Source: a phage
Direction: 5' to 3' (one strand)
DNA length: 64,000 bases
Sequence record: PZ386971.1
Shown here: positions 26,029-54,764 of the stretch, in pieces
Layout: each line of letters opens with the position of its first letter
How positions within the stretch are numbered: position 1 is the stretch's first letter
Translations under genes and position numbers: made by a program
Notes under the pieces: generated by a model
The model's input: only the letters and a program-made list of their open reading frames with translations
What the model was told of the DNA's origin: nothing
Database searches by the model: none

Positions 26029-26111
26029 GTAACTCGCCAACCCTCCCCGCCGCCTTCAATCTACGAGGGCGGCGTATAATAAAACCTGCGTAAACAAACC
26101 CGAGGAACACC

Positions 26112-50642: not shown

Positions 50643-50755
50643 ATTTGATTGAGTTTGTTCTGAAGTCGTTCGCCTTCGGTCTGATAGCATGTGGGATGAT
50701 TACAGCTATGCTTCTCATCATAGCCCTGGTCATCCCCTTTAAGAGGAAACGTTGA
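50639..50755 (+). CDS. small membrane peptide (38 aa, not in ORF track)
   Basis: ATGA coupling, GAGGAAG RBS, hydrophobic core. Confidence 0.35.
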   Translation: MNLIEFVLKSFAFGLIACGMITAMLLIIALVIPFKRKR

Positions 50756-50967
50756 TGGAATGTTCATGCGGAGGGCAGGGCACAAGTGCTTACCTGCCAT
50801 TCACCACTGTGAAGGAAGCCGAAGCCGCTGGATTTGCCGTGGACAAGGCTCCCTGTGTAATCGCCACGAAGGATTGCCCGTGCTGTAAGAGGCACTCTCA
50901 GGACGTCTTCTACGCTCCTGATGCGCGTCCGGCTACGGTCAACCTACTCTCATTGATGAGGAAGTGA
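50755..50967 (+). CDS. Cys-rich small protein (70 aa)
   Basis: CSCGG ... CVIATKDCPCC; ATG overlapping upstream stop. Confidence 0.4.
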   Translation: MECSCGGQGTSAYLPFTTVKEAEAAGFAVDKAPCVIATKDCPCCKRHSQDVFYAPDARPATVNLLSLMRK

Positions 50968-51197
50968 CATGCGCAAGTATTTCAACTGGCTGTTGGCAAG
51001 CCCCTGAGCACCGAAATCCGTTGTCTGATAGATGCGATCGATGTTGAAATGGAATGGCGAGCGCCGGATTAATCGCACAAAGGCTCAGGCCGAAATTAAA
51101 ATCGTGAAGAAGTCCACAAGGCTCTGGGTTTCATAACAAATAATTCAATAAACTATTCACCCATATAATACATGGGAACTTACAGAAGGAACAGACC

Positions 51198-51539: not shown

Positions 51540-51556
51540 CTGAGGACTACACACTG

Positions 51557-52165
51557 ATGTCACTGAAAAACTTACTGAAACGCATCTTCACCACTGTTGA
51601 AGCTAACGTCACCGCAGGTCTGGATAAACTGACCGACACCGAAAAGCGCCTGAACCTGGCTGCTCGCAAGCTGTCTGACGAAATCCGTCGCCTGGAGGAA
51701 GCCCGTGTCACCAACGTCCGCAACGGCGTCAAGCTGAAGAAGACCGCAGAACAGAACCTAAGTGAAGCCGCCAAGCGCGAAGAAGTTCTGAAGGACGCCA
51801 TCGCTCGTGGTGTCACACCAACCCGCGCCGACGCCCTGATTATTCTGCATCGCCGCCGTATCGGTGAAGCCCTGTTGGCTCAGGTGAAGGACATCGAAGC
51901 AAGCAGCGACAAACTGAACGGTGCGATCATCCAGCTGGGTGACAAACTGGACGAAGTCAAGTCCAATCTCGAGCTGGTTCGTGTTCAGAAAGAGACGAAC
52001 GACCTGGGTCTGGTGCTCCCTGAAGATATCGATTATGCCGCTGGTATGACCACCATCGATATCGATGCCATCCTGCGCGAAACCGAAATCGCTGATTCGA
52101 GCTACTCCGCCAACAGCCCGTCGTCTATCGAAGCCGACAACTACCTCGCCAGCCTGAGCAAATAA
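51557..52165 (+). CDS. PspA/IM30 (phage shock protein A)-like coiled-coil protein
   Basis: N-terminus LKRIFTTVEANVTAGLDKLTD parallels PspA [21 protein letters not shown]; coiled-coil composition. Confidence 0.45.
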   Translation: MSLKNLLKRIFTTVEANVTAGLDKLTDTEKRLNLAARKLSDEIRRLEEARVTNVRNGVKLKKTAEQNLSEAAKREEVLKDAIARGVTPTRADALIILHRRRIGEALLAQVKDIEASSDKLNGAIIQLGDKLDEVKSNLELVRVQKETNDLGLVLPEDIDYAAGMTTIDIDAILRETEIADSSYSANSPSSIEADNYLASLSK

Positions 52166-52167
52166 CA

Positions 52168-52195
52168 TCAGAGGGGCTTATGCCCCTCTATCACT
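52168..52195 (+). terminator. hairpin terminator (AGAGGGGC-ttat-GCCCCTCT)
   Basis: Perfect 8-bp stem after stop. Confidence 0.55.
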
Positions 52196-52206
52196 TCGGG
52201 GATCTT

Positions 52207-52740
52207 ATGAACATTATTGATTCTTTCAACATACTCACTGGTGCTACTGCTTTCGTTCTTTTGTGTATTGGCAGTGCCTGGCTGAGAGGTCGACTGAAGA
52301 AACGGGAAGTCTTGAAGCGAGACCGTATTGACATCCACAAAATAATGCTGGATAGAACTTGCAAACATGGCCCCAGCGGTGACTTCCGTTTGTATTATTT
52401 GTCGGATGAAGTCACCCCTTCGGAATTCTTCAATTATGCGATGGCTGGGTTGCGATGGCCGGAGATAAACGGCGTTGTTCAGAAAACTGATTACGTGTAC
52501 GTGAATATGGCTTCCCTGAACAAGCACGGGGAACGCGACGATCTGCGGATGTGGTTCTTTGGAGGAGAGGAACAAGAAGAGTTTGTAAAAGAACTTGCTC
52601 TCTTGCTTAACACGTACGAAAAGGCTGGTTGCCCACCACTCGAGGTGGAAGAATCAGTAGAATCTATCGTGGCTCGCGCTCGTGGTGAAACCGTGGATCT
52701 ACTGAACAAATACGGCTTTGTCTGGGCGGAGGGTTCATGA
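52207..52740 (+). CDS. membrane-anchored protein (N-terminal TM helix, 177 aa)
   Basis: ATG 52207 preferred over 52180, which lies inside the terminator hairpin. Confidence 0.45.
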   Translation: MNIIDSFNILTGATAFVLLCIGSAWLRGRLKKREVLKRDRIDIHKIMLDRTCKHGPSGDFRLYYLSDEVTPSEFFNYAMAGLRWPEINGVVQKTDYVYVNMASLNKHGERDDLRMWFFGGEEQEEFVKELALLLNTYEKAGCPPLEVEESVESIVARARGETVDLLNKYGFVWAEGS

Positions 52741-52845
52741 TGGATACAGAAGTCATTATCAGCCAAGCAAGATCCCACACCCGCCAATAATCTATTGAAG
52801 TCCCCAGGGTTATAATAGCAGCACATATAACCCTGGAGACACCGC

Positions 52846-54276
52846 ATGATCCCTATCCTTGAAACAGTCCGCCGACTTCGCGAAACCAAAGGCAGCAATG
52901 CGAAGAAAGCCGTGCTGACCGAAGCATTCAAGAACAACCCAGACTTGGCAGACTTCCTGCAGTATGTCTATGACCCAATGACGTCGTTCTATCGGACTGA
53001 GTTGAAGCTCAGCGCGTACCCTCGCATGCTCGTCCGTGAGAAGACTGATGACATTAGCGAAGTCTATGGCGTCCTCGACCAGATGGCGCAGCGCCTTGTC
53101 GGTGGCCAAAAGGCTGATGCCCTGTTGGCCTCTGTCGCCCTGAAGATGGATCCCCAATACCACGAACTCATTCAGATGATCCTAGACCGTGATATCAAGG
53201 CGGGTATCGCTGAGAAGGGCATCAATGCAGCGTTCAAAGCAGCGGGTGGCACAGGCCGACTGATCAACATCCTTCCGTATCATCGTTATGACAACATGAC
53301 GATTGACCTGCTGAAGAAGATGGACTTCAAGCGTGGTGTCTACAGCCAGCTGAAGTCAGACGGTATGTTCGCCAACATCATATGTCGGTACAATAAAGAG
53401 CCTGAGATTCGCTCTCGATCCGGTTCCCTTATCGCAGGCGGTTCGGTTGACAACCTGTCACTGGTGTTCAAGGACATCATCTACGATGCGGGGATTGGTG
53501 AGAGTGTGTTCCATGGTGAACTTCTCGTTGTTGACCTCAAGTCGAATACCATCCTGCCTCGTGCTGTCGGTAACGGTAAACTCAACAGCGTGATTCAGAC
53601 AGGAGAACCCCTAGAAGATCGTTATCGGGTGATCTACCGGGTGTGGGATGTTATCCCGTACGACAACTGGTTCAACGCCCAGCGCGTGGACACCCCGTAT
53701 GAAACCCGCTTCGACATGATCATGCAAATGTTTTGTGAAGACGACGGTCTGGTTCAGGTTCAAGAAACCCGTGTTGTTCACTCATTTGCCGAAGCCGTCG
53801 ACCACTTCAAAGACGCGCTGGCTCGCAAAGAAGAAGGCACGATATGTAAGGCCGCAGACATGCCGTGGGAAGATGGTACTTCTTCTGAAGGTCTGAAGCT
53901 GAAGATGGAGGTTGAGTGTGACCTTGAAATCGTGGGCTTCAACGAGGCTGACAAGAAGGGTAAACACGCCAAGACTTTTGGCTCACTGATTTGTAAAACT
54001 TCCGATGGCCTGCTTGTTGTTGGCGTATCAGGGATCTCAGATGAGCTGAGACGCCATATGTGGGAGAACCAGGGCGATTACATTGGCAAGATCGCCGCAG
54101 TGCTCTCCAATGGCGTACAGGACAAGACAGACGATGCGATGAAGTCTTTGTTCCTACCTCGCCTTGTAGAAGTCCGCATTGACAAGAAAGTGGCCAACAC
54201 ACTGGATGAAGTCTATGCGATACAGAAAGCGTACATCGAAAACATCGCATTCCTGTTGGAGAAGGGTAATGGGTGA
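52846..54276 (+). CDS. ATP-dependent DNA ligase, T4 gp30-like
   Basis: N-terminus and KxDG adenylation motif (QLKSDG) colinear with recalled T4 ligase. Confidence 0.85.
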   Translation: MIPILETVRRLRETKGSNAKKAVLTEAFKNNPDLADFLQYVYDPMTSFYRTELKLSAYPRMLVREKTDDISEVYGVLDQMAQRLVGGQKADALLASVALKMDPQYHELIQMILDRDIKAGIAEKGINAAFKAAGGTGRLINILPYHRYDNMTIDLLKKMDFKRGVYSQLKSDGMFANIICRYNKEPEIRSRSGSLIAGGSVDNLSLVFKDIIYDAGIGESVFHGELLVVDLKSNTILPRAVGNGKLNSVIQTGEPLEDRYRVIYRVWDVIPYDNWFNAQRVDTPYETRFDMIMQMFCEDDGLVQVQETRVVHSFAEAVDHFKDALARKEEGTICKAADMPWEDGTSSEGLKLKMEVECDLEIVGFNEADKKGKHAKTFGSLICKTSDGLLVVGVSGISDELRRHMWENQGDYIGKIAAVLSNGVQDKTDDAMKSLFLPRLVEVRIDKKVANTLDEVYAIQKAYIENIAFLLEKGNG

Positions 54277-54502
54277 GTATATGAGTTTCTGGTGGGCGAA
54301 GTTCTTGGTTGAACTTCAGATATCCGGCATCGTCTTCTTGATCGCCTTGATCCCAGTTGCCCGTTCGGCGTTCAAGCAATGGCGCTGCAAACACAGCACC
54401 TATCGTGAGAACCATGCTTGCCATGCTATCTGCACCCATTGTGGGAAGGATCTTGGGTTTGTGGGCACTGTCCGCAAGATGAAGAATCACAAAGAGGTGT
54501 GA
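54269..54502 (+). CDS. small membrane protein with C-terminal zinc ribbon (77 aa)
   Basis: ATG overlapping ligase stop; TM helix; CKHS ... CHAICTHCG. Confidence 0.4.
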   Translation: MGEYMSFWWAKFLVELQISGIVFLIALIPVARSAFKQWRCKHSTYRENHACHAICTHCGKDLGFVGTVRKMKNHKEV

Positions 54503-54506
54503 TCTG

Positions 54507-54764
54507 ATGGACGAGCTATTCGCATTGGTGATTGCATTAACGTTCTTACTGTCCTTGATTATCAGCTCGCTTGTGTTGTTGCTGGTGTGGATAGCTATTC
54601 CCGAGATCAATAACCACAAGGCGCTCGTTGTCGTGATTATCCTAGGTCTGAGTGCTTCCCTTACTCTTCACTATTCCAAACAGGAGTATAATCCTAACAA
54701 ATATTACAAGACATTAGCGGACAAGTATCATGAGTTTAAGAATGAAAGAGCTTCCGGTAAATGA
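54507..54764 (+). CDS. small two-TM membrane protein (holin-like topology)
   Basis: Two hydrophobic helices, charged C-terminus. Confidence 0.4.
   Translation: MDELFALVIALTFLLSLIISSLVLLLVWIAIPEINNHKALVVVIILGLSASLTLHYSKQEYNPNKYYKTLADKYHEFKNERASGK

Follow-up and report, generated by a model that had tools for sequence, protein, structure and literature searches.

We have identified, in a 64,000-nucleotide stretch of phage DNA (sequence record PZ386971.1; the whole stretch is referred to below as the window), a two-gene cassette whose first gene encodes a phage-specific protein that belongs, as a diverged member, to the PspA/IM30 (bacterial ESCRT-III) superfamily. Superfamily membership of this 202-amino acid (aa) protein holds for residues 1-147, and we infer that its most likely role is to protect the membrane and the proton-motive force (PMF) during infection. 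The second gene encodes a bitopic membrane protein, referred to here as the partner, and both genes are missing together from close relatives of the phage. The source of the window is a Vi1-like lytic myovirus (Ackermannviridae, Aglimvirinae). PspA, Vipp1 and ESCRT-III constitute a universal machinery for membrane repair and remodelling. Until lysis, a lytic phage relies on the host membrane staying energised, and collapse of that membrane is the way in which many bacterial defences kill.

The PspA-like gene is real: homologues were found in 47 database clusters and, by tblastn, in 234 of 50,697 phage records, and their length is nearly constant at 195-205 aa. The 202-aa protein scores 43.1 bits with Pfam family PF04012 (PspA_IM30; E 4.9e-11), for which the gathering score is 33.9, and its residues 5-147 align with profile positions 1-144 of 220. 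In its match to phrog_1203 (E 1.3e-66), residues 4-201 align with positions 1-199 of a 200-position profile. PF04012 is matched individually by 8 of 40 family members, and a match is precomputed for most close homologues. Two family profiles were used in searches of PDB sequences, namely A1, built from 21 Ackermannviridae homologues, and A3, built from 40 sequences that include T4-like members. With A1, Vipp1/PspA chains ranked first (E about 5e-3, collinear 6-144 to 3-142). With A3, nine Vipp1/PspA chains scored best among 177,635 PDB sequences (E 1.4e-5 to 1.9e-4), the next, unrelated chain following at E 0.011, and the match to Escherichia coli PspA (4whe) ran 1-138 to 1-139. Alignment of A3 with E. 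coli K-12 PspA in hhalign gave E 2.6e-5, a probability of 75% and ~17% identity. The PspA signal therefore strengthens with family diversity, which argues against a compositional artefact. The preliminary description of this stretch, made from the letters alone, had proposed that the 202-aa protein resembles PspA at its N-terminus; the Pfam, PDB profile and hhalign results, together with the structural matches given below, bear this out, and the search against PspA-family profiles that it called for returned PF04012 above the curated cut-off rather than no family hit.

A false homology, in which a generic coiled coil such as a scaffold or structural protein is PspA-like in composition only, would have some precedent, in that coiled coils draw spurious profile matches. 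Several family members weakly match unrelated coiled-coil Pfam families, and an 80%-identical homologue from Klebsiella phage UPM 2146 (BFVD A0A5Q2F7S5) carries the UniProt name 'Tail completion protein', which is most likely a misannotation. However, the match is collinear from residue 1 and takes in the non-coiled helix α0, the PF04012 score exceeds the curated threshold, the signal rises with the broader profile so that nine PspA/Vipp1 chains precede any other coiled coil in the PDB, and the gene sits among replication genes, not structural ones. We regard a false homology as highly improbable.

The AlphaFold2 (AF2) model of the PspA-like protein (predicted local distance difference test, pLDDT, 81.7) contains two helices, residues 3-83 and 90-149 (pLDDT 82-96), which form a long hairpin. 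A loop and two short helices follow at 169-176 and 190-201, the last with a pLDDT of about 90. When the model was compared with the PDB by Foldseek, the best six matches were all Vipp1 structures (probability 1.0), with template-modelling scores of only ~0.5-0.57 at most and no confident match past about residue 147. In the BFVD library of viral structures, the first matches outside the family were the PspA/IM30 protein of Acinetobacter phage ME3 and a Snf7 protein. The hairpin that forms the ESCRT-III core of PspA/IM30 proteins is thus present by both the AF2 helices and the Vipp1 matches, and its turn glycine, G85, which lies within an RG motif, is invariant in the family alignment. A predicted membrane-binding helix is aligned to α0 of PspA/Vipp1. 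It is amphipathic, with a hydrophobic face of L3, L6, L7, I10, F11, V14 and V18 and basic residues K4, K8 and R9, and its hydrophobic moment is 0.47 as against 0.42 for α0 of E. coli PspA.

Likeness to PspA is limited to α0-α3, and the last ~55 residues are an element of the family's own that appears to take the place of canonical α4-α5. Motifs of this tail are conserved from Ackermannviridae to T4-like phages: LG[LI]xLPEDI (LG[LI]..PEDI between Ackermannviridae and T4), [IV]D[IV]D and a terminal E/DxxxY[LI]xSL helix. The rings and rods of PspA and Vipp1 are built by α4-α5, and in the model helix 190-201 could be an analogue of α5. Repeats resembling part of the tail were also met with in an adhesin-like metagenomic protein of 3868 aa (P0059), in which 17 copies of 'EESTNTGLGLTAPTDVDTAVGTLTI' resemble the tail motif 'ETNDLGLVLPEDIDYAAGMTTIDI' (residues 144-190; summed E 2.8e-20). 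This protein was not accepted as a true relative, the resemblance being probably a chance one summed over the repeats.

The phrog_1203/T4 e.6 family is small and phage-only, being confined to Ackermannviridae and T4-like phages. T4 e.6 (197 aa; L011 3313-3906), annotated as 'conserved hypothetical protein', is a full-length homologue: its alignment with the Ackermannviridae profile has an hhalign probability of 98.1% (E 6.5e-14) and spans 196 of 197 residues, the C-terminal YxxSL tail included. The window protein is equally a full-length member, carrying the LG[IL], [IV]D[IV]D and YxxSL motifs, and both genes have a GGGGC-tetraloop-GCCCC hairpin on their 3' side. T4 e.6 differs from the window gene in that identity is 23%, that on its own it has no direct match to PspA or any other family in Pfam, that its neighbour e.5 lacks a transmembrane (TM) helix, and that it lies between e and the tRNA genes, the region in which the PspA-like homologue sits in T-even phages. 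In RB18 the homologue (L003 3498-4091) is labelled e.7, the e.6 and e.7 labels being swapped relative to T4.

The hairpin that separates the two genes has the sequence AGAGGGGC-TTAT-GCCCCTCT, with a minimum free energy of -20.2 kcal/mol in a 66-nt context (z = -2.77 vs shuffles). It is kept in Escherichia phage vB_EcoM-ZQ1 (hereafter ZQ1; 97.9% identical over the 1.9 kb around the cassette), in Shigella phage Ag3 (~94%) and in Vi01, with differing loops (TTAT, GAAA, TTT) and G-U substitutions in the stem. An equivalent GC hairpin directly 3' of the PspA-like gene was present in 10 of the 10 phages examined, and in T4 it is the classic GGGGC-UUCG-GCCCC. A T-run gives it the shape of a terminator in Miller, phiMAM1, phiEa2809 and AS-sw; no T-run accompanies it in the window, ZQ1, Ag3, Vi01, RB18 or T4. 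A terminator scan scored the window hairpin on the non-coding strand only, and a canonical intrinsic terminator on the + strand was ruled out because no T-run follows. The hairpin after the PspA-like gene in the preliminary description therefore exists (52170-52189) and is conserved. In the window it does not have the form of a clean terminator, and it probably serves as a 3'-end, stability or attenuation element of the RNA.

The PspA-like gene is also set apart by its codons. In the fraction of E. coli-optimal codons it reaches 0.715 and ranks second among the 81 open reading frames (ORFs) of the window (mean 0.557, sd 0.067), and its GC content at third codon positions (0.655) comes near the highest value seen. 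The partner, at 0.534, is average. The partner is probably the less abundant protein, given its unremarkable codon usage and the conserved hairpin that lies between the genes. Judged from these features, the PspA-like mRNA may tend to end or be stabilised at the hairpin, which would leave its product in excess over the partner.

Among known systems, cyanobacterial Vipp1/IM30 (6zvr, 7o3w, 8qbr, 8qfv) gives the best profile and structural matches and shares the ESCRT-III-type hairpin, although it is longer (about 260 aa), with α4, α5 and an extra C-terminal α6. E. coli PspA, the effector of the PspF-ABCDE system and a PF04012 member (4whe), shares the amphipathic α0 and an α1-α3 hairpin that is collinear from residue 1, is similar in size (222 aa vs 202 aa for the phage protein) and has the cytoplasmic, peripheral-membrane location that is expected for the phage protein. 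It differs in sequence (about 17% identity), in having α4-α5 where the phage protein has its tail, and in setting, the phage gene lying in the replication block of a lytic phage. The cassette does not form a Psp system: pspF, pspB and pspC were not seen among the flanking genes, and in hhalign the partner shows no relationship to PspB (probability 0.6%) or PspC (0.5%) of E. coli.

A phage counterpart of PspA(1-144) might nevertheless act as a regulatory mimic of the host Psp system. By binding PspF, PspB/C or host PspA, it would silence or hijack the phage-shock response, or co-polymerise with host PspA and poison it. The region of homology, 1-147, coincides with the crystallised PspF-binding fragment PspA 1-144 (4whe), which is sufficient for PspF binding in E. 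coli, and α4-α5 appears to be replaced. The named hosts among the matches listed are all gamma-proteobacteria, and PspF-ABC systems occur in gamma-proteobacteria. Mimicry of this kind nonetheless seems decidedly unlikely to us, since ~17% identity is too low to expect an intact PspF interface and the family-wide conservation of amphipathic α0 points to membrane binding. Near-top codon optimality suggests stoichiometric, structural amounts rather than those of a regulator, and it is hard to see what a phage would gain by repressing a membrane-protective response.

ESCRT-III proteins (Snf7, CdvB) and PspA share a superfamily fold (PMC8281802). Structural likeness of the phage protein to ESCRT-III is weak, a Megaviridae Snf7 protein ranking 8 in BFVD and CdvB2 ranking 46 in the PDB search. 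The protein has no Pfam match to Snf7 (PF03357), no Vps4-type or other AAA+ ATPase was seen among the flanking genes, and it is thus not an ESCRT-III/Snf7 protein in the narrow sense.

The partner probably starts downstream of the first ATG of its longest ORF (52180-52740, 186 aa). ATG 52180 lies within the loop and stem of the hairpin, is absent from Ag3 and Vi01, and was rejected as the start. ATG 52207 is conserved behind GGGGA, and the match to phrog_11433 (E 3.2e-76) begins at residue 10 of the long ORF; the partner is therefore most likely 177 aa long, not 186. It has a single N-terminal hydrophobic helix (Kyte-Doolittle segment 3-27, peak 1.88; AF2 helix 6-31), which is followed by RGRLKKREVLKRDR and flanked by charges of 0 / +5. 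The positive-inside rule serves as a guide to topology. By this rule, the +5 flank after the helix predicts that the ~150-aa remainder is cytoplasmic. The predicted topology is N-out/C-in, which would place the domain on the same side of the membrane as the expected position of the PspA-like protein. The membrane anchoring of the second protein in the preliminary description is thus borne out by the one helix and the +5 flank; its assumed start is not, the real one lying probably 27 nt later. Two large homology searches with the partner found 14 close clusters only, and its AF2 model is poor (pLDDT 61.5), with an α-β3-α core at residues 60-140 being moderately confident. Positions of the features of the cassette are collected in Table 1.

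Table 1. Coordinates of the two-gene cassette and its elements in the window
Feature	Position	Strand	Evidence or remark
Shine-Dalgarno GAGGA of PspA-like gene	51542..51546	+	10 nt before ATG; sequence
PspA/IM30-like protein, 202 aa, ATG start, TAA stop	51557..52165	+	Pfam, phrog_1203, PDB profiles, AF2, Foldseek
Two-gene indel cassette	51557..52752	+	exact stretch missing in AV101 and ~10 other close relatives
Helix α0, residues 2-22, cationic amphipathic	51560..51622	+	aligns with PspA/Vipp1 from residue 1
Helical hairpin α1 / α2-3, residues ~25-83 and 90-149	51629..52003	+	AF2; alignment to PspA/Vipp1 hairpin
Family-specific C-terminal tail, residues 150-202	52004..52162	+	Pfam alignment ends at 147; conserved motifs
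GC-rich hairpin, 8-bp stem, TTAT loop	52170..52189	+	directly 3' of PspA-like stop codon; folding, conservation
Shine-Dalgarno GGGGA of partner gene	52198..52202	+	conserved in ZQ1, Ag3, Vi01
Bitopic membrane protein, 177 aa (phrog_11433)	52207..52740	+	PHROG match, start conservation
Predicted N-terminal TM helix, residues ~6-26	52222..52284	+	Kyte-Doolittle, flank charges, AF2

In Bacillus subtilis, the PspA homologue LiaH is encoded beside LiaI, a small membrane protein that could recruit it. The phage cassette shares with LiaH-LiaI the arrangement only, a PspA-family gene beside a small membrane-protein gene, and the NCBIfam LiaH match to the PspA-like protein is weak (E 0.042). Gene order is reversed, the phage partner consists of one TM helix plus a ~150-aa cytoplasmic domain, LiaFSR-type regulation is lacking, and the partner is not recognisable as a LiaI-homologous anchor, matching no Pfam family at E<=1. 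By analogy, the two-gene layout may work like modules of the LiaIH type, of which it is not a member.

The cassette behaves as a unit. In Escherichia phage AV101 and about ten similar phages, the flanks are 96-99% identical to those of the window and exactly 51557-52752 is absent (junction 51556/52753). The missing stretch contains both genes and nothing else, and the 'module' of the preliminary description is upheld by this joint loss. The orphan GAGGA is still present in AV101, which suggests a deletion. On the + strand the gene order is UvsX, primase-helicase, the two-gene cassette, DNA ligase and helicase loader, a block of replication genes, and the genes that flank the cassette encode a KVP40.0369-like protein, phrog_5022 and DNA ligase. 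The slot between the KVP40.0369-like gene and the ligase is common to Kuttervirus, Agtrevirus, Miltonvirus and Nezavisimistyvirus, so that the PspA-like gene is probably ancestral to Ackermannviridae and has been lost repeatedly. The phrog_1203 PspA-like gene is reported to be present in 4 of 15 kutterviruses and absent from the other 11 (Gendre et al. 2022, PMC9409062).

The 234 phage records with the PspA-like protein belong to Ackermannviridae and many T4-like Straboviridae, at 60-100% identity in the Kuttervirus, Agtrevirus and Klebsiella groups, about 28-30% in phiMAM1 and phiEa2809, and 24-34% in T4-like Straboviridae. The partner was found in 86 records, which among the matches listed are all Ackermannviridae of enterobacteria, and the records with the PspA-like protein at >=60% identity also number 86. 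Co-occurrence of the two genes rests on these equal counts and on their adjacency on the same strand in 7 of 7 records that have both among the matches listed (ZQ1, Ag3, pSal-SNUABM-02, Mooltan, SP1, cp19 and Bestiario). In Vi01, too, the partner lies directly 3' of the PspA-like gene on the same strand, and megablast with the Vi01 cassette returned only 13 near-identical records. Comparisons of the partner with the downstream ORFs of phiEa2809 and phiMAM1 gave only weak, short motif matches (hhalign probabilities 7% and 23%); phiMAM1 gp159, which has no TM helix, shares the motif TPxExFN..M..L..P with it. In phiEa2809 the partner's position, directly 3' of the PspA-like gene, is occupied by a 171-aa ORF (L007 3191-3706) that is not annotated and has a TM helix at its N-terminus. 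The stretch between the PspA-like gene and the ligase of that phage (L007 3130-4937) contains several long ORFs and no annotated genes.

Genes for small membrane proteins are concentrated at this locus, which is a hot-spot for them. Short ORFs with one or two TM helices cluster around the ligase gene: in the window they lie 3' of it (54269-54502 and 54507-54764, both +), and in Ag3 (L002 5647-6145) and Vi01 they are placed between the partner and the ligase. This setting in Ag3 and Vi01, the strict paired gain and loss in Agtrevirus-like phages, and a hairpin and codon bias that fit much antidote and little effector would accord with an effector-antidote pair. The partner would then be the active agent, in superinfection exclusion, lysis timing or another membrane perturbation, and the PspA-like protein would buffer the damage. 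T4-like phages, however, keep the PspA-like gene without such a partner, the bulk of the partner is predicted to be cytoplasmic, and its one TM helix comes with no holin-like or pore-like features. We strongly doubt this arrangement.

The two genes are conserved to very different degrees. Between the window and Vi01, the PspA-like protein is 83.7% identical, the highest value among five adjacent genes and above that of the ligase (80.9%), whereas the partner is the lowest at 32.8%. Fast evolution of the partner (33% vs 84%) is what an arms race would lead one to expect, and it bears on the possibility of a dedicated counter-defence, which has already been proposed in print for phrog_1203 by Gendre et al. 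(PMC9409062). The PspA-like protein and the partner would neutralise abortive-infection effectors that depolarise or permeabilise the inner membrane, such as Rex-like systems and the pore-forming effectors of CBASS, retrons and similar systems, by patching the membrane or binding the effector. The accessory, patchy presence of the cassette among close relatives also speaks for such a function, as does the PHROGs category of the partner, 'moron, auxiliary metabolic gene and host takeover'. On the other hand, no PADLOC or anti-defence signature was found, the PspA-like protein is highly conserved and not diversifying, its apparent high expression suits a general housekeeping role in infection equally well, and the searched literature offered no experiment that ties it to a defence system. 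A dedicated counter-defence is rather unlikely on this balance.

Protection of the membrane and the PMF as a general infection function is the reading that we prefer, with about an even chance of being correct in the following form. Stabilisation of the inner membrane and the countering of membrane-targeting defences had both been raised as possibilities in the preliminary description. The PspA-like protein would be produced abundantly from the region of the replication genes (early/middle), and α0 would bind the cytoplasmic face of the host inner membrane. The α1-α3 hairpin, as the polymerising core, would then assemble a coat or polymer that protects the membrane by reducing the loss of protons. 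The PMF and the supply of ATP would be sustained in this way as the envelope is perturbed by the phage or the host attempts depolarisation. The partner, anchored by its one N-terminal helix and with its ~150-aa domain in the cytoplasm, would be functionally coupled to the PspA-like protein and possibly in physical contact with it, its likeliest role being that of an adaptor, recruiter or client at the membrane that is specific to the lineage.

Several observations weigh against this protective coat. The hydrophobic moment of α0 was reached by 240 of 5000 shuffles (about 5%), such that its amphipathicity is only modestly above chance, and α4-α5, the ring/rod region of PspA, is not recognisably present, profile alignments stopping near residue 147. 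Compared directly, the protein and host PspA have next to no pairwise similarity (phmmer E 8.1), and when the family profile was run against 1.84 billion representative proteins, it recovered 42 clusters only, nearly all of 195-205 aa, with no cellular PspA at E<=1e-3; functional equivalence to host PspA can therefore not be assumed. The same two results, together with the family's own tail, point to an old phage-specific branch and not to a recent capture from a host. The cassette is dispensable, being absent from AV101-like phages. Hydropathy of the neighbours of the PspA-like gene revealed no TM-bearing protein in T4, RB18, Miller or AS-sw, and since a TM partner is missing beside the PspA-like gene of T4-like phages, and possibly of phiMAM1, the core function of that gene does not depend on the partner. 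The partner itself had no match in Pfam (E<=1), NCBIfam or PADLOC, and its profile gave only noise against PDB sequences (E >= 0.1). Its Foldseek matches in the PDB (double-stranded RNA-binding domain-like folds and de novo designs) were generic, had low template-modelling scores and were taken as meaningless, so that no fold was assigned. Lastly, the searched literature contains no experimental work on any member of the family, a paragraph in Gendre et al. 2022 being all that was found on phage PspA-like proteins or T4 e.6.

Two further observations concern the surroundings of the cassette. A 71-aa Cys-rich ORF (phrog_4789; window 50752-50967, +) shows weak similarity (E 0.009) to positions 1-67 of the PHROG for ATP-dependent DNA ligase, and the ligase ORF (52846-54276, +) covers positions 88-527 of the same PHROG. 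By sequence, the small ORF looks like the N-terminal zinc-ribbon module of the ligase split off as a gene of its own, 1.9 kb upstream; in phiEa2809 a comparable 82-aa Cys ORF lies directly 5' of the ligase (L007 4648-4896). TATAATA motifs occur at 51164-51170, 52811-52817, 26075-26081 and 42380-42386, within or beside hairpins and ~30 nt 5' of start codons. One precedes ORF 51198, one precedes the ligase with the stem CCAGGGTTATA/TATAACCCTGG, and one makes up the loop of a hairpin (42372-42394) that resembles a terminator and has a T-run. These motifs may be candidate phage promoters or regulatory elements, in which case the transcription unit would run from 51198 through the PspA-like gene to the partner.

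PspA homology of phrog_1203 was published in 2022 (Gendre et al., PMC9409062), and NCBI names some copies 'PspA/IM30 family protein'. As the homology is already in Pfam, in NCBI names and in one paper, and the role is a proposed one, the cassette offers a good lead but is hardly surprising. With respect to the searched literature, four points appear to be new: that T4 e.6 is linked to the family, that the two genes make up an exact indel cassette, that a conserved hairpin follows the PspA-like gene, and that the two genes contrast strongly in conservation and codon bias. A bolder interpretation, which we think improbable as a whole, is that T4 e.6/phrog_1203 forms a phage-only, minimal ESCRT-III/PspA lineage, made of α0-α3 and a new docking tail and joined in Vi1-like phages by a fast-evolving bitopic adaptor, that counters membrane-depolarising abortive-infection effectors or controls the timing of lysis.

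Membership of T4 e.6 in the family makes the question testable in the best phage genetic system, and ZQ1 and Ag3 on the one hand and AV101 on the other provide natural, isogenic-like pairs with and without the exact cassette. If the proposed protective role is true, the phage would have in this conserved PspA-like protein, whose expression is apparently high, a direct means of its own to keep the membrane intact. If the protein serves counter-defence or lysis timing, it would represent a viral membrane-repair system, for which phage T4 would be a ready genetic model.

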